Positions 7,410-49,177 of a stretch of 64,000 bases of DNA are shown piece by piece. The stretch comes from an uncultured Porphyromonadaceae bacterium (GTDB taxonomy: Bacteria; Bacteroidota; Bacteroidia; Bacteroidales; Porphyromonadaceae). Numbering within the stretch: position 1 is the first letter of the stretch; each line of letters opens with the position of its first letter. The DNA lies in assembly GCA_947253625.1 (NCBI GenBank), contig CAMYAB010000003.1:107105-171104 (forward strand), read 5' to 3'. The notes under the pieces are model-generated. The model did no database searches, had not been told where the DNA came from, and saw only the letters and a program-made list of their open reading frames with translations. The translations under genes were made by a program, and so were the position numbers.

Positions 7410-7436
7410 TCCACAACACTTACCTAGGAGACAAAA

Positions 7437-7486
7437 CAGAGAGAGGAAGTACCTAAAAATACTCCTCTCTCTGTTTTCTTTTTTCA
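7437..7486 (+). terminator. Rho-independent terminator after dus
   Basis: ACAGAGAGAGGA / TCCTCTCTCTGT 12-bp stem followed by TTTTCTTTTTT. Confidence 0.75.
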
Positions 7487-8034
7487 AAAATCACTCCCCC
7501 CTACCCTTTTTCCGAAGGTCTCACTTTTTCATACCACCCGGGCATGTTGGTAGAGTGTTAGTAAAGTGTGGAAAACGTGTGGAAAGATTTGGGCTACTTT
7601 TCTTGGTTTATTTTCAGATTTTCTTATGACGTAAAAGAATCAACAGCTCCAAGAAAACAGCAAAAAAGTTATGCACAACTTCTCCACCACTCTTTCCACA
7701 GATTCATCAACATTGATTCATTCGTACCGGACGGGGAAGTCGGCACTTATCCACAGTTTCCACACGTATTATATCCATCCTATCTTTTAGCCCCCACCCT
7801 ATAAGTCCACACAAACAGTTCTTAGCACACAAAAAAATAAGAAGAAAGGTGTTGGGCAAAACGGGTGAGGAGGCAAAAAAAAAGGATGCCCCGGTTTTGA
7901 CGATCTGCTTTGTTACCCTTGCGAGAGCTGCGCCCCAATTACCATCGCCCCACCCTCTACTCAAATAACCAATCATAGGTCTATATGGTTGTCCCAGCCG
8001 GGGGGCCAAAAACAGCTTTTTGGGGGTATTGATA

Positions 8035-8124
8035 ATCAGATGATTACAAGTGACTTTGAGTTTCACGGATAGAAGCAAAACTTTTCACGGATAGAAGCAA
8101 TCGTTTGGACGGATAGAAAAAAGT
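8035..8124 (+). repeat. Copy A of a dispersed ~90-110-bp repeat with three 22-bp-phased TTTCACGGATAGAAGC units
   Basis: tttcacggatagaagcaaaac / ttttcacggatagaagcaatcg / tttggacggatagaaaaaag. Reverse-complement copy at 40009-40119. Confidence 0.85.
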
Positions 8125-8570
8125 GGTTGGTTCGTTTTTCTCCCTCATAAAGGGGGGCAACATTTGTTTCCGAATGTAGTCCTGATGGGAAGAGTGTCTT
8201 GGGTGGGTACGAAATAATTTGTTACATTTGCACTGCTTGTTAGGAAATACAGATTTTTTATACAGACAACATACTATTGTTGATCTGCGTGCGTGTCCGA
8301 TTTTTGGGATGGTGTGCAGTGGTGCAATAGACGACCTATTGCAGATCATTGGTCTGCATAGAATCCTAGGTTTTACCTAGGTGACATGATGTTTATTTTG
8401 TTATAGCCATCTACTTTTTCATTGCTTTTATAAGTAGAGACTTTGAGAGCTCATAGCATGCTTGCTGTGGGTTCTCTTTTTTTTAAGGTGACTGTTGTAC
8501 GACGGTATTCGGCCACGTGACCGAATACCGTCCTCGGTTGCGTGGCTATATAGTTTGTCGTGTGGTGAGG

Positions 8571-22578: not shown

Positions 22579-22634
22579 GCAAAAAAGGACTGCTCCCCGG
22601 CCATCTCGGTACGGACAAATAGGAAAAACCCGAT

Positions 22635-22828
22635 GAGCGGGGGCGAAAAGTACTCCCCATGTAGATCCAAACTTTTTCCTCCGGTCGAAAAAGTCCAAAT
22701 CACACTGTGATTTATTCAGATCACTATGTGATTTATTCAAATCACTAAGTGGTTTCTTCAAATCACACAGTGATTTTATCTTTTTCTCCGACACACGTAC
22801 CTTTTTCTCCGACACGGTCGTTTTTTTC
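22635..22828 (+). repeat. Left 194-bp inverted repeat (IR-C) bracketing the MacB-type exporter operon
   Basis: Reverse complement of 28807-29000 with only 2 mismatches. Contains four 21-bp palindromic units (atcacactgtgat…) and two tttttctccgacac units. Confidence 0.9.
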
Positions 22829-22842
22829 AAGGGGAAAAAAAC

Positions 22843-22850
22843 TATCTTTG
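22843..22850 (+). promoter_or_regulatory. -7 box TATCTTTG between IR-C and the exporter ATPase gene
   Basis: TAnnTTTG match. The predicted transcription start falls after the ORF-track ATG (22854), which supports a downstream start for the ATPase. Confidence 0.45.
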
Positions 22851-22934
22851 TAGATGCCGAGCTTGCGGTGTGTCCCGTATCAGCGACTCTATGAGTGTCC
22901 ACCTTGTACGGTGTGCACAGTGGTGACCAACATT

Positions 22935-23615
22935 ATGATAGCTATGAATCCGGTAATCGAGATCAATGATCTACACAAGACCTACCCCGGAGTGCAGTCT
23001 CTGCATGTCCTCAAGGGGGTTTCACTGCGCATAGACAATGGGGAGATGGTGGCTCTGATGGGGGCCAGTGGATCGGGCAAGAGTACGCTCCTCAATATCC
23101 TCGGGATACTCGACACGTATGATGCAGGCTCCTATCACCTGAGTGGCAAGCTGATTCGGGATTTGGACGAAAACAGTGCGGCCGAGATGCGGGGACGGCA
23201 TATTGGTTTTGTGTTTCAGTCGTTTAATCTCATCAGCTTCAAGAACGCCCTAGAAAATGTGGCTCTGCCACTCTACTACCGAGGGGTCTCCCACAAAGTG
23301 CGCAACAAGCTGGCAGAGGAGTATCTGGACAAAGTGGGGCTTCTGGACTGGAAGGAGCACCTCCCGAATGAGTTGTCGGGCGGACAAAAGCAGAGAGTCT
23401 CCCTGGCAAGAGCACTGATCACCAAGCCGACCATACTCCTTGCCGATGAGCCCACCGGAGCCCTGGACAGCACGACCACCATAGAGGTGATGAATCTGCT
23501 GAGGCAGGTGAATGAGGAGGAGGGTGTGACCATGCTCATCGTCACGCACGAGCCGGCGGTGGCTGAGTGCTGCGAGCGCACGATACACATCAAGGACGGA
23601 CTGATCGTCCGATAA
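22935..23615 (+). CDS. MacB/LolD-type ABC transporter ATP-binding protein
   Basis: Walker A GASGSGKSTLLNILG, signature LSGGQKQRVSLARAL and Walker B LLADEPTGALD. The ORF extends to 22854, but the conserved N-terminus starts at MIAMNPVIEINDL. Confidence 0.85.
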   Translation: MIAMNPVIEINDLHKTYPGVQSLHVLKGVSLRIDNGEMVALMGASGSGKSTLLNILGILDTYDAGSYHLSGKLIRDLDENSAAEMRGRHIGFVFQSFNLISFKNALENVALPLYYRGVSHKVRNKLAEEYLDKVGLLDWKEHLPNELSGGQKQRVSLARALITKPTILLADEPTGALDSTTTIEVMNLLRQVNEEEGVTMLIVTHEPAVAECCERTIHIKDGLIVR

Positions 23616-23623
23616 GGAGGAGG

Positions 23624-24916
23624 ATGAGGATGAGAGTGCCTTTTTTTCAAGAGCTGATCAACTCCCTACACAACAACGTCCTCCGGACCCTCCTCACCGG
23701 CTCGACGATAGCCTGGGGCATTACTCTGCTCATCGTGCTCTTGGGCGTGGGCGACGGGATCGAGAAGGGTATCACCCACACGGCCTACTCGACAGGGCTG
23801 GGGGATGTGCAGATGTCTCTCTATCTCAACAACGCCAATCGCCCCTACGGCGGGTACCAGGATGGGCGGGATCTGTACCTCTCGTCCCGACAGGTGCGGC
23901 AGCTGCAGTCCGCTCAGGCGGCTCGCTACAGAGCGATAGAGCCCTGTTTTCAGAAAATAGGCAACATGGTCAGCACCGCCTATGGAGAGTCGGGGATGAT
24001 GATCGGGACCATCACGGCGCGTGAGCAGATGTTCAACCAAGAGAGGTTGCTTGCGGGGCGACTCTTTACGCCTCGGGAGCATGAGCAGGCAGAGCGAGTG
24101 TGCCTTTTGCCGGACTATGAGGTGTCGCGACTGTTTGTGTCGGGGCAGGACCCGATAGGGCAGAGTGTGATCGTGTGGGGGGTGTCGTTTCGGGTCGTGG
24201 GGACACTGGAGTATAGCAACCCCTACATGGGGATGATGAAGATTCCGTACAACACGTTTGTCGCCCTTTTCCCCAACGATGTCCTGAAGTACAAGATGCT
24301 GAACCTCTACCCTGTCACGAGGGATCAGGAGCTGCTGGCCCAGTGTGAGGAGGAGCTCAAAGCGGATGTGCGCCGTATGCTGACCGTGGATCCACAGGAC
24401 GACCTGTCGGTGACTGTCAGGAGTACGTCAAGTGCGGAGAATGCGATGGCAAAGGCTTTTGTCGGCCTCAAGATCCTACTCTGGGTGATGGGTGTGGGGA
24501 GCTTGTCGATAGGCACGATAGGAGTGACCAATATCATGAGTGTCACGGTCGAGGAGCGTCGTCGCGAGATCGGCATCCGCAAGGCAATAGGCGCTCGCCC
24601 GAGGGATATCCTCACGCTGGTCCTTGGCGAGAGCCTGCTCTTGTCACTCTTTTTCGGAGTGATCGGCATAGGGGTTGGCTACCTGTCGGTGGATATCATC
24701 GGTGACATGGTCGCTCGGCACGGCTGGGCCTCACGACCGATAATGATGGGACTGGACAGCACGACGCAGATCACGATCTTTCGGGATCCGCAGGTCAGCC
24801 CCGGGATGGCTCTTGGGGCTCTGTGCGTACTGGTCATCGCCGGATTGTGGGCCGGCTATGGACCGGCCAAGAAGGCGGTCAGGATACCTGCAGTGGTGGC
24901 TATGAGGGACAAGTAA
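23624..24916 (+). CDS. ABC transporter permease, FtsX/MacB family (1 of 2)
   Basis: N-terminal TM, a large periplasmic MacB-PCD-like domain and a C-terminal FtsX 4-TM domain with IGIRKAIGA. GGAGG RBS-like sequence before the ATG at 23624. Confidence 0.75.
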   Translation: MRMRVPFFQELINSLHNNVLRTLLTGSTIAWGITLLIVLLGVGDGIEKGITHTAYSTGLGDVQMSLYLNNANRPYGGYQDGRDLYLSSRQVRQLQSAQAARYRAIEPCFQKIGNMVSTAYGESGMMIGTITAREQMFNQERLLAGRLFTPREHEQAERVCLLPDYEVSRLFVSGQDPIGQSVIVWGVSFRVVGTLEYSNPYMGMMKIPYNTFVALFPNDVLKYKMLNLYPVTRDQELLAQCEEELKADVRRMLTVDPQDDLSVTVRSTSSAENAMAKAFVGLKILLWVMGVGSLSIGTIGVTNIMSVTVEERRREIGIRKAIGARPRDILTLVLGESLLLSLFFGVIGIGVGYLSVDIIGDMVARHGWASRPIMMGLDSTTQITIFRDPQVSPGMALGALCVLVIAGLWAGYGPAKKAVRIPAVVAMRDK

Positions 24917-24925
24917 GCAGGCAAC

Positions 24926-26206
24926 ATGATGATGAAGCGGTTTTTGAATCACGAAGTACGTCAGGAGATCTGGTACACGATCCGCGCCAATAAGCGTCGC
25001 ACACTGATGACAAGCCTGGGGGTCTTTGCGGGGATGTTTTTCTTCACCTTCCTGACCGGCATTGGGCAGGGGATCGAAAACTCCATCAGAGCCAATCTGG
25101 AGACCAGTTCGTCCGAGATGCAGATGATTTTTGGCTCTCGCACCACAATGCCCTACCAAGGCTACAAAGCCAATCGGCAGATCACGACCACCTATGGCGA
25201 CTTTCTCGCCCTAAAGAAGCAAGCGACCCTTATCGACAAAATAGAGGGGACAGCCGGATTTGGAGGCAGAGTGGACTCAAACACGACACGCGTAATAGCC
25301 AATGGTAAGAGCCAAGAAGAAAACGTCCAAGGGGTGTCCGCCGGCTACATACCCAATATCCTCCAAGCCATCGTGGTAGCCGGCCGATACATGCATCCCG
25401 ACGAGATCGACAGAGGCGAAAACATCTGCGTCATCGGGACAAACACCAGTGTGAAGTTCTTTGACACCTACGAGGAGGCAGTGGGGCAGTACATGATCAT
25501 ATCCGGTATCGCTTTTAGGATCGTTGGAGTGATGACACCCTACTCCGATGCCGCAAATATCGGATTCAACCTCAAGTACGTCACCTTGGTACCCCTTGTC
25601 TTTGCAGTCAACAACTCCCCCAACGCCGCCTGCCAGTTCCCATTTGTCCGCAAGCCCGGTGTGACTCCGGATGCCGCCGCCGATCAGATGATCACCCTCC
25701 TCTCCGCCCGCCACCATGTGCATCCGGAGGACAAAAAGGCCTTTGTGACGGTGAGTATGCAGATGATCACTCGTATCTTTGAGATGGTGGTCAACGTCAT
25801 CAATGTCCTAGTCTGGGTAGTCGCACTGGGCACGCTCTTCTCTGGAGTAATCTCTGTGTCCAATATCCTCCTCGTCACAGTCAGAGAGCGACAGCGCGAG
25901 ATCGGAGTGCGGCGCGCCATCGGTGCCAAGCCGTCGGATATCCGCTGGCAATTCATGCTCGAGTCCATCCTCATCATCCTCCTTGCCGGATCAGCGGGAA
26001 TGCTTGTGGCGCTGACCCTGAACCTCGGGATCGGGGCCCTGGCTGATGCGACACAGCTGGGAAACTTCATCCAAGCCCCATACCCGTCGCCACTCATGAT
26101 GGTGCTCTCGGTCATCATCATGCTGCTATCCGGACTGCTGGCCGGACTGCTACCGGTACACCAAGCACTAAAAATCAAGGCAATAGACGCCATAAGAGAC
26201 GAATAA
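24926..26206 (+). CDS. ABC transporter permease, FtsX/MacB family (2 of 2)
   Basis: Same architecture as the first permease. Conserved REIGVRRAIGAKPSDI. Confidence 0.75.
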   Translation: MMMKRFLNHEVRQEIWYTIRANKRRTLMTSLGVFAGMFFFTFLTGIGQGIENSIRANLETSSSEMQMIFGSRTTMPYQGYKANRQITTTYGDFLALKKQATLIDKIEGTAGFGGRVDSNTTRVIANGKSQEENVQGVSAGYIPNILQAIVVAGRYMHPDEIDRGENICVIGTNTSVKFFDTYEEAVGQYMIISGIAFRIVGVMTPYSDAANIGFNLKYVTLVPLVFAVNNSPNAACQFPFVRKPGVTPDAAADQMITLLSARHHVHPEDKKAFVTVSMQMITRIFEMVVNVINVLVWVVALGTLFSGVISVSNILLVTVRERQREIGVRRAIGAKPSDIRWQFMLESILIILLAGSAGMLVALTLNLGIGALADATQLGNFIQAPYPSPLMMVLSVIIMLLSGLLAGLLPVHQALKIKAIDAIRDE

Positions 26207-26234
26207 TAATCCCCAAAATATCCCCCCAAAAGCT

Positions 26235-27356
26235 ATGGCAAAGAATAGCAAAAGCAAAGTAATCTCCATCCTCCTCCGATGCCTCGTCGGCTTAGTGGCC
26301 ATCGGCATACTCGGGCTGGTCCTCTCCAAGTCCAAGAAAAAAGAAAACGAGTACGAGCTACTGAGCCCCACACCGGGTGACAGCATCATTCACAGCACCA
26401 TCCTGACCGGCAATATCCAGCCTCGAGACGAAGTGCTTGTCAAGCCACAGATGAGCGGTATCGTGGCTGAGCTGCTGCACCTACCGGGCGATATGGTCCG
26501 CGAGGGGGATCTGATAGCACGCATACGTATGATCCCGGACGTAGCCTCCGTCCAAAACGTAGCCTCACGAGTCGAGAGTGCGCGAGTGGCGCTCCGCACA
26601 GCATACGATGTCTACCGCCGCGACAGCCTGCTGATGGCCCAAAACATCCTCTCCGCAGAGCGCTACGAGCAGAGCAAAGGAGCCTACGACCGTGCGGTCA
26701 TCGACCTCGTCACAGCACAGGAGCAACTACAGCTGGCCAGCAAAGGATCCAGCAACCGCACCGCCAACCAAAACAACACCCTCGTCCGCGCCACAGTGAG
26801 TGGGGTCATCCTGGATCAACCCGTGAAAGTCGGATCCAGTGTCATCCAGGCCAACAACTTCAACGAAGGCACCACCATCGTGAGCATTGCCGACCTAAAC
26901 GACCTCCTTTTTGTCGGTAATGTCAACGAAAGCGATGTCAACAAAGTACAGGTAGGAGCTCAAGTCCGCCTCAAGGTAGGCGCCATCACCGGCCGGACCT
27001 ATCCCGCAATCGTAGAGTACGTCTCTCCCAAAGGCAAAGAGACCACCGGCACCATACTATTTGAGGTCAAGGCGGCCCTACAAGCCGGTGACCTCAGCGA
27101 CCTCAAAGCCGGATTTTCGTGCAACGCCGAAGTGGAGCTAGACCGTCGCACAGACGTCCTGACCATCCCCGAGAGTGCCATCTCCTACGAGGGCGACCAA
27201 GCCTACGTCTACCTCTCCAATGGAGGCAACACCGACAGTAGCTTCACCAAGCATGCCATCCAAGTCGGCCTCTCCGATGGACTAAAAATCGAAGTCCTAT
27301 CCGGACTGAGTGGCACAGAAAAGCTCCGTGGAAACCTACTCAGCATCAAAAAATAA
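26235..27356 (+). CDS. HlyD/MacA-family periplasmic adaptor (membrane-fusion protein)
   Basis: N-terminal TM, coiled-coil segment and a lipoyl/beta-barrel MFP fold (…RATVSGVILDQPVKVGSSV…). Confidence 0.75.
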   Translation: MAKNSKSKVISILLRCLVGLVAIGILGLVLSKSKKKENEYELLSPTPGDSIIHSTILTGNIQPRDEVLVKPQMSGIVAELLHLPGDMVREGDLIARIRMIPDVASVQNVASRVESARVALRTAYDVYRRDSLLMAQNILSAERYEQSKGAYDRAVIDLVTAQEQLQLASKGSSNRTANQNNTLVRATVSGVILDQPVKVGSSVIQANNFNEGTTIVSIADLNDLLFVGNVNESDVNKVQVGAQVRLKVGAITGRTYPAIVEYVSPKGKETTGTILFEVKAALQAGDLSDLKAGFSCNAEVELDRRTDVLTIPESAISYEGDQAYVYLSNGGNTDSSFTKHAIQVGLSDGLKIEVLSGLSGTEKLRGNLLSIKK

Positions 27357-27363
27357 GCCGACC

Positions 27364-28731
27364 ATGAGACCAGCCACCCACACCCTACTCCTCCTAGCGC
27401 TCCTCCTTGTACCGGCATCCCTATCGGCCCAGGAGCTCAAGCCCACCATGACCCTCGTGGAGTGCGTCGACTATGCACAGGCACACAGCCCACTGCTCCT
27501 ATCACTCGACCCCAAAATCGAGAGCATGCGACTAAACGAAGCTCTCGCCACGCAAGCCTTTTTGCCCAACCTCAACGCCGGACTTGGACAAAATGCTTCC
27601 TTCGGCAGATCGCAGGGCAAGGATGGCGTCTTCCGTGACCTCTCCAACACCAACACCTCCCTATCCATCTCGGCACAGCTGGACCTCATACAAGGCGGTG
27701 CCAGGTGGTGGAGCCTGAAAAAAGCCAAAGAGACCCTCAAGACCACAGACTACCTCATCGCCGACACCAAGGACAACATCGCACTCAAGACCACCCAAGA
27801 CTACATCACCCTACTCCTCGCAAGGCAGATGGTCACAGTGGCAAAAGAAAACCTCACCCTCTCCGAACAACAGCTCCACGAGACAGAGCGGCAGGTCACC
27901 GCAGGCAAGCTACCCGTCTCCAACCGTATTCAGGTACAGAGCCAAGTCGGACAAGCACGACTCACACTAGCCGAGGCCGAGGCCGATGCCGAGCGAGCCA
28001 TGCGCCTACTCCTTCTGGGAATGGGCGTCACCGATCGTGCCACCACCCTCACCACACCACAGTACGCCATCGACCAAGTAGCCACCCACAACGACCAACT
28101 CTCCACCTGCCGGCGAGACCCACTATGGGTACGACCCGATACACGACTAGCCGAGCTCAACGCCAACCTAGCCGACTACGACATCAAGCGTGCCAAAGCA
28201 GCCTACTGGCCAGCACTCTCGCTCAACGCCGGATACTCCAACGGCTACTACTACAACTTTGGCACCCACCTCCTCACAAGCACCAACATCCCCTTTGCCG
28301 ACCAACTCCGCCAAAATGGACGAACCTACGTCGGACTCTCACTCACCATCCCCATCTACAACAGAGGACAGCTCCAAGGACAGGTACGACAAGCCAAGCT
28401 CCTACAAATGAACCTCCGGACACAGTACATCCAAAAATCCTACCAAGACGAGCAAAACATACTCCTAGCCGAGTCCGACCTCCAAAAAGCACAAGGGCAG
28501 TGTACCCTATCGGCCGAAAACCTCAACCTCACACGCCAAGCACTCAATATCGCAGACCTGGAGTACCGAGCCGGCAAGATCACAACCTACGAGTGGGAGC
28601 AGGCCAAAAACAAACACATACAGGCACAAATACAGTACGCCACGTCCGTCTACACGAGGTTGCTCAGGAGCATCACCCTCCGATACTTCTATACCGGCCG
28701 ACTAGACTTCTCCGAGGTATTAGCCGACTAA
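27364..28731 (+). CDS. TolC-family outer-membrane efflux protein
   Basis: Signal peptide and two tandem TolC repeats (…LTLVECVDYAQAHSPLL… and …ADLEYRAGKITTYEWEQ…). The ATG at 27364 follows the HlyD stop. Confidence 0.8.
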   Translation: MRPATHTLLLLALLLVPASLSAQELKPTMTLVECVDYAQAHSPLLLSLDPKIESMRLNEALATQAFLPNLNAGLGQNASFGRSQGKDGVFRDLSNTNTSLSISAQLDLIQGGARWWSLKKAKETLKTTDYLIADTKDNIALKTTQDYITLLLARQMVTVAKENLTLSEQQLHETERQVTAGKLPVSNRIQVQSQVGQARLTLAEAEADAERAMRLLLLGMGVTDRATTLTTPQYAIDQVATHNDQLSTCRRDPLWVRPDTRLAELNANLADYDIKRAKAAYWPALSLNAGYSNGYYYNFGTHLLTSTNIPFADQLRQNGRTYVGLSLTIPIYNRGQLQGQVRQAKLLQMNLRTQYIQKSYQDEQNILLAESDLQKAQGQCTLSAENLNLTRQALNIADLEYRAGKITTYEWEQAKNKHIQAQIQYATSVYTRLLRSITLRYFYTGRLDFSEVLAD

Positions 28732-28806
28732 TCCTCATACCACACCCTTTTTCCCCATCATTCGCACCAAGCAGAGAAGGGGGGCTTTTTTTTGAGAAGC
28801 AAATGG

Positions 28807-29000
28807 GAAAAAAACGACCGTGTCGGAGAAAAAGGTACGTGTGTCGGAGAAAAAGATAAAATCACTGTGTGATTTGAAGAAACCACTTAGTGATTTGAAT
28901 AAATCACATAGTGATCTGAATAAATCACAGTGTGATTTGGACTTTTTCGACCGGAGAAAAAAGTTTGGATCTACATGGGGAGGACTTTTCGCCCCCGCTC
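28807..29000 (+). repeat. Right 194-bp inverted repeat (IR-D), reverse complement of IR-C
   Basis: 192 of 194 positions identical to the reverse complement of 22635-22828. Confidence 0.9.
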
Positions 29001-29053
29001 GTTGAGTTTTTGGAGTTGGTGTGTTGCGGTGAAAGTGGGTAGGCTCAATTTAC

Positions 29054-29095
29054 AAAGGGTGAGCTTTCGGACGAAAGCTCACCCTTTGTCTTTTT
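29054..29095 (+). terminator. Rho-independent terminator downstream of IR-D (plus strand)
   Basis: AAAGGGTGAGCTTTC-GGAC-GAAAGCTCACCCTTT stem-loop followed by GTCTTTTT. Confidence 0.75.
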
Positions 29096-29156
29096 GCCCG
29101 CCACAGTCGGGGAAATATCGCTCCTCAAGTCTTTTGGGGGGATCGAGCGCTCCTCT

Positions 29157-31559
29157 TTAGCGCACGGAGAAGAAGAGCTTGTAGGTCATCATCGGTGTCA
29201 GGCCCTGTGTGTACATTGTCGAGTAGTCGCCCTTGCCGGGATCAAATAGGATGGACATGACGTTTTTGCGGTTGGTCACGTTTTGTAGGTCCAGTGCCCA
29301 CTCTTGGGTGATGCGCCGGCTTATCCGGCGAGTGCCTATCTTTAGGTCCGCACGGAGGTAGGACTTGGCTTGGTGGGCATTGACTTGGGTCGTGTCGAGT
29401 CCCGGTACCTCTCGCCCCTCCTTGTCGGTGGTTATTCGTATGGGCGTGTAGCGGGTCCCTCCGGCACATGACGCTTTGAGGTCTGCAAAGAGAGCCCAGT
29501 GACGGGGTAGCTCCCACTCATACCCACCGGTGAGGTTGATCAGGTAGCGGCCATCGAAGAGGGTGCTCCACCACTCTTTTCGGAATCCGGTGGTATAGGT
29601 GGATCTGTAGAGTGATGTGTTGAGGAGGAGGTAGTAGTTGTCACCGAAAAACTTCTCCACCGTGAGCTCCACACCATAGTTTCGACCCCGTCCTTTGTTG
29701 ACCAGGTTGCTCTGGCGCTCTAGGTAGTTTTGTCCGGCACCTCCGAGCTCCAGGAGTGTCCATATAGAGTTTGGGTCATTGACTACCGGCACTCGGTACA
29801 GCTCCTGATAGTAGCCCTCTATCTTGGCATGCCAGTCGGGTGCAAAAGCCCAGTCGTAGTAGAGATCCATCTGGGCACTGCGGGTGAAGTCGACCTTTTG
29901 GTTGCGGTATTCGATACCTTTGGGGCTGTAGTGGCGTATGAAGTAAAAGGAGTGCGGGAGTATCTGGCTGTAGAGCCCGGCTGCAAGTCCTATGGTGTGC
30001 GAGCGATCCGGCCGGTATTGTAGGCCCATACGGGGCTCGACGGTGTAGCGATGATTGATCGAGAGATACATACCATGCACTCCCATGGTGGCGGTCCAGT
30101 GGTCTCCTATATGCCGGCGATACTGTCCGTAGGTGCGCACCATGCCATAGTGCGGGCGCTCCTCGGTAAGCGTCTTCACTCCGCGAGCAAACTTGCTGTC
30201 GGCCACTTGCTCCAAGTAGTGTGCGCCAAAGAGGTCGCCTTTGATCCCCGCCACCACCAATCCCTCACGAGTGGGGTGCCACGTGAGCTCCGAGCGTAAG
30301 GTCCACCTATTTTCCAGTGCGGCCTCCGCCCATAGGAGGTGCCACGTATCTGAGGGGTCTCTCCGGAGGCTCATGGTGTCCACCGGCATGCCGGTATCCG
30401 AGCGTACAAAGGAGAGCTGTGTGCGGAGAGCTGTGCGAGGCGAAAACTGCACCTCGTGTGTCAGCCCGGCTACGTAGGCTGTCGAATTGATCGCTATGCG
30501 CTGTGCGAAGGAGAGCTTGTCGTAGTCGCTCCCCTCTCCCAGCTCATTGGTCGCAAAGTGTATGTGACTCTTGCTGAACAGACCGACGAAGGAGAGGGTC
30601 TGCCCATGGCCCAAGTCAAAGTGAAGTTTCGTCGTGAAGTCCTGATAGCGCGGGACGAAGGGCATCCTGACCCCCATGGCGTGCATGATATCAGGGATGG
30701 AGTAGCGATAGGAGGCTAGGTAGGAGGATTGACTGCCCTTGCGCAGGTAGCCCTCGGCCCCGAGCTCCAGGCCCCCAAAGCCTGACTGTAACCAAAACTC
30801 TTGTCGCTCCGGATTGCCACGGCGTAGCTCTAAGTCAAAGATTCCCGAGAGGGCATTGCCATAGGTCGCCGGCCAAGCGCTCAGGTGAAAGTCCGAGTTG
30901 GTCAGCAGATTGGTATTCAGATAGCTCACCTGCCCACCGGTCATGCCGACGCCGGTATTGAAGTGGTTGGGGTTGCTGATCTCGATCCCATCCAGCAGCC
31001 ACTGCACTCCGGTAGGCGAGTTGCCGCGAATGATGATGTCGTTGCGAGAGTCGTTGACGGGCATGATGCCGGCAAAGCTACGGACCATGCGAGCCGGATC
31101 ACCCAGCGAGCCGGCAAAGCGGTACGCCTCCTCGACGCTGAAGCTACGTGCTCCGGCCAGGCTAAGCCGATTGGTGGGGACACTCTTGTCGTATGGGGCT
31201 GTGACGACTACCTCTCCGAGCTTGGTCTCTGTGGGTGTCAGGACTATCCGGAGGACACTCTGCTTGCCGGCTACGACGAGTAGCTCCACATCCTGCGACT
31301 CATATCCTACGCAACTGACCAATAGGGCGTTGCGGCCAACAGGCAGCCGGAGCGAAAACTTTTGGTCCACACCGGTAACCGTGCCTATGGGTGGGTTGCT
31401 CCCACGCCGCACGACCGTGGCTCCGATGATTGTGTCGCCGGGTAGTGCGGAGACGATCTCTCCACGCACCTCTTGGGTGAATGGTGCTTGAGCCCTCAGC
31501 TGAGTCGATGAGGCAAGAATAGGAGTGAGCAGTAAGAAGAGTCTAATGAAGTGTCGCAT
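29157..31559 (-). CDS. TonB-dependent outer-membrane receptor (N-terminal carboxypeptidase-regulatory-like domain)
   Basis: Signal peptide and plug-domain motifs. C-terminal beta-barrel ending …YKLFFSVR with a terminal aromatic region. Met22 (31559) chosen over the ORF-track start at 31622. Confidence 0.8.
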   Translation of the reverse strand: MRHFIRLFLLLTPILASSTQLRAQAPFTQEVRGEIVSALPGDTIIGATVVRRGSNPPIGTVTGVDQKFSLRLPVGRNALLVSCVGYESQDVELLVVAGKQSVLRIVLTPTETKLGEVVVTAPYDKSVPTNRLSLAGARSFSVEEAYRFAGSLGDPARMVRSFAGIMPVNDSRNDIIIRGNSPTGVQWLLDGIEISNPNHFNTGVGMTGGQVSYLNTNLLTNSDFHLSAWPATYGNALSGIFDLELRRGNPERQEFWLQSGFGGLELGAEGYLRKGSQSSYLASYRYSIPDIMHAMGVRMPFVPRYQDFTTKLHFDLGHGQTLSFVGLFSKSHIHFATNELGEGSDYDKLSFAQRIAINSTAYVAGLTHEVQFSPRTALRTQLSFVRSDTGMPVDTMSLRRDPSDTWHLLWAEAALENRWTLRSELTWHPTREGLVVAGIKGDLFGAHYLEQVADSKFARGVKTLTEERPHYGMVRTYGQYRRHIGDHWTATMGVHGMYLSINHRYTVEPRMGLQYRPDRSHTIGLAAGLYSQILPHSFYFIRHYSPKGIEYRNQKVDFTRSAQMDLYYDWAFAPDWHAKIEGYYQELYRVPVVNDPNSIWTLLELGGAGQNYLERQSNLVNKGRGRNYGVELTVEKFFGDNYYLLLNTSLYRSTYTTGFRKEWWSTLFDGRYLINLTGGYEWELPRHWALFADLKASCAGGTRYTPIRITTDKEGREVPGLDTTQVNAHQAKSYLRADLKIGTRRISRRITQEWALDLQNVTNRKNVMSILFDPGKGDYSTMYTQGLTPMMTYKLFFSVR

Positions 31560-40008: not shown

Positions 40009-40119
40009 CCCTCTATCCGTCTGAGTGATGGCTTCTATCCGTGAAAAGTTTCGCTTCTATCCGTGAAAACTTTTGCTTCTATTCGTGAAACTCGAGGTGC
40101 TGTGTAAGTATTTGATTGT
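40009..40119 (-). repeat. Copy B of the TTTCACGGATAGAAGC-array repeat (reverse orientation relative to copy A)
   Basis: On the plus strand: cttctatccgtgaaaag ×3-4 with 22-bp phasing. The reverse complement aligns with 8035-8124, including about 35 bp of flank. Confidence 0.85.
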
Positions 40120-40396
40120 CAGTGCCCCTACCGGAAAGTCGCCTTTTTCCCCGAAAATCACCCTCCTTTTCCCTCCTCCGCCCCTCAAAAAAAAGGGGGC
40201 GGTGGTCGTCTCTCCCGAGGGGTGTCGTTTGGGGGGCAGAGTGTGCGATACATTGGCCCGAATGGGGCGTCCGGACAAGGGTGTTTTTTCCTAAGGTCGG
40301 AGAAAATTGGTACCTTGCGACCGGATCTGTGGGGTCGTCCTTGGCTCGACCAAAGCCGACTCCCCGGATTTGGATGTTGCACTAAGAAAAAAAAAG

Positions 40397-48977: not shown

Positions 48978-48996
48978 TCTCTCTGCTCGGAACTGC

Positions 48997-49060
48997 AGTT
49001 TCTACGGAGTGAAACTACAGTTTCTACCCGTTGAAACTGTAGTTTCACTCCGTAGAAACT
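48997..49060. repeat. 28-bp perfect inverted repeat (hairpin) with 8-nt loop
   Basis: agtttctacggagtgaaactacagtttc | tacccgtt | gaaactgtagtttcactccgtagaaact. No flanking U-run on either strand. Confidence 0.8.
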
Positions 49061-49177
49061 CTAGTTTCATCCTCAGAGGAGACTTTTGGACATCAAGGGG
49101 TGCGGAAAAGAAAAAGGCCACACCGAGTTATCAAAAACGCTCGGTGGGCCTTGCTGTTTTTGGGATGTACCCCTTTT

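Follow-up and report, generated by a model that had tools for sequence, protein, structure and literature searches.

The window analysed here, a 64,000-nucleotide stretch of contig CAMYAB010000003.1 from an uncultured Porphyromonadaceae bacterium, contains a MacAB/TolC-like efflux operon bracketed by two inverted copies, C and D, of a non-coding cassette built around short palindromic (dyad) units (Table 1). Related arrays precede genes of the HU-HIG family in other Bacteroidales, and C and D may be orphan copies of one of them. In the Pfam scan, the operon encodes an ABC ATPase, two FtsX/MacB permeases, an HlyD adaptor and an OEP outer-membrane protein. Upstream of C are btuF/C/D-like ABC importer genes, and downstream of D, on the opposite strand, is a gene for a CarboxypepD_reg outer-membrane protein; D is thereby situated between convergent genes. 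The window is core chromosome (ftsZ, tmRNA, alaS). The Rfam search of the window returns only the tmRNA gene, at 2538-2949 (RF00023, 140.9 bits), with no match for the cassette.

Each cassette consists of a 61-nt flank, an array of 4 x 21 nt and 2 x 21 nt, and a 6-nt T-rich end, which in C reaches 22828; this layout is kept in both copies. The dyad units of C begin at 22697, 22718, 22739 and 22760, with the cores ATCACACTGTGAT, ATCACTATGTGAT, ATCACTAAGTGGT and ATCACACAGTGAT, respectively. An earlier note on this DNA had described four palindromes phased at 21 bp, followed by two direct repeats and mirrored in a second copy on the reverse strand, and all of these parts are present, above the expectation from shuffled sequences. 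With at most one mismatch (<=1), ATCACNNNGTGAT has 9 matches in the window versus 2.15 +/- 1.35 in the shuffles, 0 of 100 shuffles reaching 9, and 8 of the 9 matches fall inside C or D; TTTTTCTCCGACAC has 4 matches versus 0.33 expected. Aligned with the reverse complement of D, C is identical at 191 of 193 positions (99%), both mismatches being outside the arrays. Beyond the 193-nt core, about 12 nt of decaying similarity extend on the outer side, and the repeat finder accordingly gives inverted arms of 205 nt at 98%. Two copies of the cassette are visible within the 64-kb window. The same region in metagenome contig L001 (European Nucleotide Archive sample ERZ27231582) agrees with the window over 20.7 kb except at a single base, position 28888, the centre of a D unit.

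Table 1. Coordinates of the cassettes and of the features around them (window positions).
Feature	Position	Strand	Remarks
Cassette copy C	22636-22828	+	193 bp, non-coding; similarity weaker from 22624; alignment, repeat finder pair I1
Non-array flank of C	22636-22696	+	GGGGG...CCCC segment; third pyrimidine motif CTTTTTCCTCCGG
Four tandem dyad units of C	22697-22780	+	21 bp each; 13-bp dyad core ATCAC-N3-GTGAT
Two direct units of C	22781-22822	+	21 bp apart; TTTTTCTCCGACAC at 22781-22794 and 22802-22815
Bacteroidetes-type -7 box TATCTTTG of the exporter operon	22843-22850	+	exact TAnnTTTG; 15 nt past the end of C
MacAB/TolC-like efflux operon	22944-28731	+	between C and D; Pfam scan; start 22944 set via comparison with FC4
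Cassette copy D	28807-28999	-	inverted mirror of C; similarity weaker out to 29011
Two TTTTTCTCCGACAC units of D	28820-28854	-
Four dyad units of D	28859-28942	-	match those of C
Intrinsic-terminator-like hairpin and T-run	29052-29095	+	17 pairs, hairpin 29052-29089; just past D

The nearest genome found is that of Porphyromonadaceae bacterium FC4 (locus L013), in which the HlyD adaptor is 80% identical. The gene order in the window is btu (+), C, efflux (+), D, CarboxypepD_reg (-) and DUF6198 (-); in FC4, it is DUF6198' (+), efflux (+) and btu (-). With respect to both of its neighbours, the FC4 efflux operon runs the other way, and the FC4 order is regained by flipping the C-D segment of the window, with one indel remaining. 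The inversion spans 6.2 kb, with breakpoint intervals at 22590-22940 and 28711-29157. No C- or D-like sequence is present in L013 on either side of the FC4 operon. Since C and D are absent from the FC4 sites and the operon is reversed, the two cassettes sit within both breakpoint intervals and mark the borders of an operon inversion relative to FC4. The operon has a single orientation in the window and in L001, and the opposite orientation is seen only in another species. Invertons have inverted repeats of 10-40 bp, an invertase nearby and both orientations in one population; the inverted repeats of C and D measure 193 bp, and no recombinase gene is found in the window. In FC4, the DUF6198/cytidylate-kinase-like gene is cut at about residue 138 (L013 6046-6430) and there is no CarboxypepD_reg gene, so that FC4 has a deletion of its own beside the efflux operon.

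Outside the window, arrays of this type are dispersed. A degenerate two-unit pattern has no match in 185,579 species genomes (one genome per species), so an array of exactly the window type must be rare, or else limited to relatives that have not been sampled; the pattern has no match in viral contigs either, and C has none in plasmid records. In metagenomes, the pattern identifies 11 loci, which come from two samples and represent 8 distinct ones, with 4-5 units of AAAATCACGTCGTGATTTATT apiece. They occupy different intergenic places of a Bacteroidales organism, several at contig ends, and are bordered by short imperfect inverted flanks, AAACATCGTTTATAAA ... TTTATGTCGAATGTTTC, which are weak and 16 nt long. 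Furthermore, BLAST against PLSDB locates the array family in Parabacteroides distasonis TSDC17.2-1.1, whose genome stands in that database as 'plasmids', in 10 records and 23 places at E <= 1; nine of these loci were retrieved with annotation and confirmed. The units have the consensus CAAATCAC-ACT-GTGATTTATT in the window, AAAATCAC-GTC-GTGATTTATT in the metagenomes and CAGACCAC-GAC-GTGGTCTATA in P. distasonis, and the three sets are alike in half-sites (AATCAC/GTGATT), period and count. In the two large sets (35 and 29 units), the half-sites carry about 2 bits of information and the centre 0.1-0.6 bit. Because the half-sites are conserved and the centre is variable, this is the pattern expected of a site read by a dimer and not of a neutrally slipping minisatellite. 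Four P. distasonis copies are common over about 200-260 bp, comprising a leader with 2-3 phased TATGAATTCTT motifs, the four dyad units and a tail of about 100 nt with a TAtaTTTG box.

The earlier note had recognised in the units dyad-symmetric sites phased on one face of the helix, which holds, and the conservation of the half-sites suits a dimeric DNA-binding protein. Its proposal of a CRP/FNR operator is not borne out: the consensus geometry TGTGA-N6-TCACA of the 22-bp CRP site is absent from the units, in which the half-sites are ordered TCAC-N3-5-GTGA within a unit, or TCAC(A)-N1-3-(T)GTGA in longer form, and TGTGA-N10-TCAC between units. A wider form of that proposal is a dedicated operator of the exporter promoter, bound by a CRP/FNR, TetR or Xre regulator, with D as a second operator looping to C. 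The position of C is in favour of it. The exporter -7 box had been placed just after C, and an exact TAnnTTTG box does exist there, 15 nt beyond the cassette, while the T-rich inner end of C provides the -33 region and C spans about -30 to -210 of the promoter. In addition, a TolC/HlyD operon follows one of the P. distasonis copies, and in Porphyromonas sp. COT-239 (L024) the efflux ATPase gene is preceded, at a distance of about 350 nt, by a 23-bp array of a different kind. However, the genes on either side of D converge on it, neither cassette has a regulator gene next to it, and the orthologous operon of FC4 does without any such array. The arrays of relatives are beside unrelated genes and without regulon logic: the 16 tallied intergenic contexts of orphan arrays, of this and other families, comprise 6 convergent, 3 divergent and 7 tandem gene pairs with unrelated neighbours. 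Such varied contexts argue against a dedicated operator of any one regulon, and this explanation is improbable.

One of the P. distasonis arrays (L057) is located about 105 nt before a gene of 213 amino acids, and the tail of the array runs into that gene. The product, WP_005856492.1, belongs to the Pfam family HU-HIG (PF18291, E = 8.5e-15) and the NCBIfam family HU_rel (TIGR01201). In two further P. distasonis loci (L058 and L062), the alignment with L057 continues through the first 20 or so codons of the HU-HIG gene and then stops. As they keep a stub of the gene, these orphans are duplicated upstream regions of an HU-HIG gene, which points to segmental duplication of that region rather than to excision and insertion of a defined element.

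The association extends to other HU-HIG genes. The 17 genes examined comprise the L057 gene, six paralogues or homologues from PLSDB (in P. distasonis, Bacteroides finegoldii, Phocaeicola massiliensis and a Bacteroides plasmid) and ten metagenome homologues with 47-78% identity; the whole set, from Parabacteroides, Phocaeicola, Bacteroides and metagenomes, ranges from 24 to 100% identity. A dyad array is present upstream of 16 of the 17, with 3-4 units of about 21-22 bp, starting 138-189 nt before the ATG. In the 17th (L070, Parabacteroides), an insertion sequence (DDE_Tnp_1, at 236-1363) occupies exactly the expected place of the array. The protein variant of L070 is found, according to the index, on thousands of contigs. 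For the first 13 genes, the upstream periodicity score averages 39.1, versus 27.6 +/- 4.0 for 349 control upstream regions taken from loci retrieved for an unrelated reason (Mann-Whitney p = 5e-9). The four later genes score 38-49, and in all 14 of the 17 exceed the 95th percentile of the controls. The array cores vary by paralogue, including GCCGAC-N3-GTCGGC, AAACGAAAGCTTTCGTTT, GACTTAAGTC, TTCACTG-N-CAGTGAA and AATCCAAAGCTTGGATT. Among the orthologues of the L057 gene (62-78% identity), outer half-sites of the AATCAC/ACCAC type are kept, and the distance between array and start codon is fixed. The window shares AATCAC/GTGATT with L072 and L079-L081, while L057 and L078 have ACCAC/GTGGT.

The AlphaFold model of the L057 protein has a pLDDT (predicted local distance difference test score) of 85.8. 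The N-terminal domain of the model matches the HU-HIG crystal structure 4FMR and HU/IHF, and the C-terminal domain, with three helices and two strands, matches winged helices (Z-alpha, MarR, ArsR). On this model, the protein is plausibly a dimer with two sequence-reading heads. HU-HIG proteins are described as subject to rampant lineage-specific expansion and loss, with no conserved gene neighbours, and their upstream repeats go unmentioned (PMC5499826). Within the literature that was searchable on 21-bp Bacteroidales arrays, on Parabacteroides MITEs (transposable elements of the miniature inverted-repeat type) and on HU-HIG together with repeats, no prior description was found. The association between the arrays and HU-HIG genes is strong and apparently unreported. 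Judged from the sequences, C and D would belong to a cassette class made up of phased binding-site arrays preceding HU-HIG genes across Bacteroidales, together with scattered intergenic orphans.

The favoured explanation, with a rough probability of one in two, is that C and D are orphan copies of the cognate array of an HU-HIG protein, that is, a BrickBuilt-like dispersed repeat, and that they are substrates or products of the inversion. With four dyad units at a 21-bp period, C and D fall within the 3-5 units and 21-23-bp period of HU-HIG arrays, and their half-sites are common to the arrays of one HU-HIG orthologue group. The position 140-190 nt before an HU-HIG start codon is not seen at C and D, which are orphans, like L058, L062 and L063. 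The putative cognate protein would dimerise via its HU-like domain, each subunit contributing a winged helix at its C-terminus. With one dimer per dyad unit, four dimers would be aligned along a single helical face and form a cooperative nucleoprotein array. At the parent HU-HIG gene, occupancy of the array would give autoregulation. The upstream region could have been duplicated and the gene later lost, or it could have been copied without the gene; orphans such as C and D would be the outcome, and could still bind the putative cognate protein of the window organism. As near-identical inverted repeats, C and D would be substrates for homologous recombination flipping the operon; alternatively, they could have been generated together with the inversion, by replicative or template-switch duplication. 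If occupied, C could modulate the exporter promoter, as a side effect of its landing place and not as its purpose. Within the window, the two cassettes, as orphan copies, are probably by-products.

In its general form, the proposal is that HU-HIG proteins, a large family to which no function has so far been assigned, are sequence-specific array binders whose paralogues co-evolve with their own sets of about four 21-bp dyads in front of their genes, that copies of these blocks spread or persist along the chromosome as orphans and serve as recombination substrates and as secondary binding platforms affecting promoters, and that BrickBuilt is one such family; this wider proposal is tentative, and somewhat less probable than its opposite. 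The scenario by which the earlier note would have been refuted, a dispersed repeat, is the nearer to the truth, except that the repeat class is tied to HU-HIG genes.

Several observations weigh against the HU-HIG explanation. Among the open reading frames tested, no HU-HIG gene is beside any of the five arrays of the window; jackhmmer over the six-frame open reading frames of the window and of the loci collected by then returns the query itself only, and Pfam scans of candidate small open reading frames in the window give no HU-HIG gene. The window arrays are tied to those of Parabacteroides as homologues by a core of 13-17 nt together with the spacing and number of units, features for which the search pattern itself selected. 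It is ambiguous which way C and D would face with respect to a former gene: the flank of C has a near -7 box, AAAGTTTG, on the - strand at 22675-22668, and the match of the TTTGGA and AAAGTTTG layout is weak. No orphans were found for the HU-HIG array of L067. The stricter expectation that every orphan has an HU-linked master copy failed for the 23-bp GCAGTACTACTGC family of P. distasonis, which in the records available has one other detectable copy only, likewise an orphan. Meanwhile, the published analysis calls HU-HIG proteins enigmatic and argues that they are unlikely to be sequence-specific (PMC5499826). As for the inversion, its polarity is blurred by the deletion in FC4, and the more distant relatives L014 and L015 have no flanks in common with the window, nor does any outgroup share them.

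An unlikely but appreciable alternative is that C and D are a MITE-like minisatellite element mobilised by a transposase, in the strict BrickBuilt sense, in which HU-HIG plays no part. The arrays would then be transposase-binding or slippage repeats, and the inverted pair and the inversion would come from intramolecular replicative transposition. The copies are near-identical, absent from FC4 and within the breakpoint intervals; their relatives are dispersed and break assemblies, and the metagenome copies have the short imperfect inverted flanks mentioned above. BrickBuilt itself has been described as a MITE whose terminal inverted repeats are IS5-like, and an IS21-like insertion sequence of L019 (5260-6991; transposase with rve and Mu-transpos_C_2) ends in four 24-bp tandem repeats (AATGGTACTGTTTGCTCCGGAATA), which indicates that arrays can be transposase sites. 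However, inspection of C and D in normal and in split or inverted configurations reveals no terminal inverted repeats, the A/T run being the only common part of the cassette ends GAGCGGGGGCG... and ...GGTCGTTTTTTTC; no target-site duplication, direct or split-inverted, is apparent by inspection at the boundaries 22624/22636 or 22828, and the window has no transposase gene. This alternative also leaves the HU-HIG coding stubs of the P. distasonis orphans unexplained, and units with variable centres and conserved half-sites argue for selection on dimer binding.

The L019 array also bears on how such repeats are classified: as it is the end of an IS21-like element, some arrays of about 22 bp in these genomes are transposon ends, and treatment of all of them as one class was rejected.

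A role at the RNA level was also considered, in which C, as a 5' leader, and D, in the 3' untranslated region, pair as a duplex of about 190 bp (an RNase III target or a circulariser of the mRNA), or in which the cassette acts like repetitive extragenic palindromic (REP) sequences as a 3' stabiliser or terminator. No terminator-like site is predicted between the stop codon of the btuD-like gene (22578) and C, and the + strand terminator that the earlier note had placed beyond D is present as a hairpin with a T-run. A single strand of the cassette is predicted to form a long hairpin, with a far better fold than shuffled sequences (z = -5.8), and several orphans lie between convergent genes, as REP sequences do. 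Nevertheless, the exporter -7 box is downstream of C, so the main exporter transcript would exclude C. The pairing is broken by unit variation, for example in the asymmetric units of L067 and of the metagenome copies; the cassette has no Rfam match, and orphans are equally common in promoter regions. Such a role is very doubtful.

Inside D, a near -7 box, AAAGTTTG, is situated at 28960-28967 and points outward to the + strand terminator at 29052-29095. Together, these two elements could define an RNA of about 120 nt, or they could be what remains of the promoter of a gene since lost. The fold of the RNA from D to the terminator has z = -2.9, owed mostly to the terminator hairpin, and the outward transcript from C is no better structured than chance (z = 0.09).

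The arrays had also been compared with plasmid iterons; a related view would take them as centromere sites or polar fork barriers, with the nested pairs A...C and D...B as a terminus fork trap. With 4-6 units of about 21 bp, the arrays resemble iterons and the pSK41 parC site; moreover, the two array pairs are nested and inverted. The chromosomal setting speaks against this view, because the window is core chromosome and has neither rep nor par genes. The relatives have many copies per genome, and C is without a match in plasmid records. A terminus or fork trap was rejected separately, as the GC skew tracks the gene strand and has no switch between C and D. The iteron assignment is thereby dropped, and the view as a whole is scarcely credible.

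Further arrays occur in the window and in related genomes. The pair A (8023-8130) and B (40012-40128) is likewise inverted, 32 kb apart and nested around C and D, with 21-22-bp TTTCACGGATAGAAGC units; it consists of TTTCACGGATAGAAGCAAAAC x 3-4 and a common leader of about 50 nt, and its members are about 79% alike. In FC4, an inverted pair of the A/B type (L013 5625-5705 and 15640-15745) surrounds the DUF6198'-efflux-btu block, with units of GACGGATAGAAG alternating with TTTCCAGTAGGAAA, related to those of A and B; such arrays therefore repeatedly coincide with synteny breaks. Around array A, a gene-free stretch of 1.16 kb (7410-8570) contains an exact TAnnTTTG box at 8223-8230 with no open reading frame after it, and may be the site of a small RNA or what is left of a gene. 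Between the convergent RNase HII and GH92 genes, at 48991-49068, there is an array of a third family (22 bp x 3.5; AACTGCAGTTTCTACGGAGTGA, with the dyad AAACTGCAGTTT), which has no other copy in the window.

Outside the window, P. distasonis has a 23-bp family (GTTGCAGTACTACTGCAAGGCCT) with two copies filling short gaps between convergent genes (L077 11134-11252 and L082 1801-1872), and no HU-linked copy of it was detected. Three different 22-23-bp arrays lie within 20 kb in Porphyromonas sp. COT-239 (L024 6137-6205, 14130-14262 and 17213-17462); one is the array upstream of the efflux ATPase gene, and another consists of six units of AATAGTTATAACTATT. In addition, the metagenomic Bacteroidales organism carries an unrelated MITE of about 200 bp with the terminal inverted repeats AGTAATGGTAAAAAAATAAC ... 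GTTATTATTTCACCATTACT at at least six loci (L003 8710-8909, L005 1436-1632, L007 9018-9216, L011 69-262 and the ends of L008 and L009).

If the HU-HIG explanation is correct, the arrays would be the first concrete DNA target for HU-HIG proteins, of which Bacteroidales genomes, those of dominant gut and oral species included, have many fast-diverging paralogues. It would also account for how intergenic minisatellites of the BrickBuilt type came about and identify a source of the long inverted repeats that reshuffle operons, here that of a MacAB/TolC-type efflux pump. Simultaneously, the function of HU-HIG becomes directly testable, since one protein and one 84-bp DNA fragment suffice, and the locus provides a concrete genome rearrangement bounded by two copies of the array.

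Among known systems, the closest is BrickBuilt of Porphyromonas gingivalis, a dispersed intergenic element with a spacer-less minisatellite of 23-nt dyads, 1 to 22.8 units per copy, set between a leader and a tail that are distinct from it (Klein et al. 2015, PMC4596501). Its terminal inverted repeats are IS5-like and 12 bp long, and there are some target-site duplications; promoter activity is reported, and copies are found beside efflux and DNA-binding protein genes (PMC4596501). The shortest array-bearing copy, BrickBuilt_14, is 84 nt long without leader or tail and is directly upstream of PGN_0872, an HU-type gene (PF00216) (PMC4596501). By analogy, this is what the HU-HIG hypothesis would predict for a 'master' copy, a link not drawn in that paper. 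C and D share with BrickBuilt the Bacteroidales host, the dispersed intergenic copies, the head-to-tail dyad units of 21-23 nt, the long predicted stem-loops, the non-repetitive flanks (leader and tail), neighbours that include efflux and HU-type genes, and, in the case of C, the contact with a promoter. They differ, in a comparison by description only, in having 21-nt units in a fixed number of 4 + 2, whereas BrickBuilt has 23-nt units in variable number. The terminal inverted repeats and target-site duplications of BrickBuilt were looked for and not found at C and D, and strict membership in BrickBuilt or the MITEs is therefore not established. C and D are best filed as a variant of the BrickBuilt-like dispersed array class that had been mis-assigned as an iteron or a CRP operator.

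The arrays upstream of HU-HIG genes are similar to C and D in the 21-bp period, the four dyads, the AATCAC/GTGATT outer half-sites of the WP_005856492.1 orthologues and the extra phased direct motifs beside the dyad block. The central spacer is 3 nt in C and D versus 3-7 nt in the orthologues' arrays, and C and D lack the HU-HIG gene. Tandem ARG boxes, with 18 bp plus 3 bp, have the same 21-bp period, and the OR and OL triplets of lambda are phased dyad operators. Like the cassettes, both have dyads two helical turns apart, suited to cooperative binding on one face, and paired clusters kilobases apart can loop; however, these are unique sites with known regulators, whereas arrays of the C/D type are dispersed, orphaned and without regulon logic. 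Plasmid iterons are sets of 3-7 helically phased tandem units, each about 20 bp long, and agree with C and D in phase and number. Iterons are direct, non-palindromic repeats of 17-22 bp accompanied by rep, an AT-rich region and DnaA boxes; C and D have none of these, and four of their six units are palindromic.

The ends of IS21, Mu and Tn7 also bracket a segment with inverted ends that contain several tandem sites of about 22 bp. In contrast to them, C and D have no transposase, no TG/CA termini and no target duplication, and their units are palindromic, not directional. The REP sequences and bacterial interspersed mosaic elements of enterobacteria are imperfect hairpins of 20-40 nt in alternating orientation, linked to REP-associated tyrosine transposases. 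C and D resemble them as dispersed intergenic palindromes, often between convergent genes, that are substrates for rearrangements, and differ from them in being direct tandem arrays of short dyads with no such transposase.

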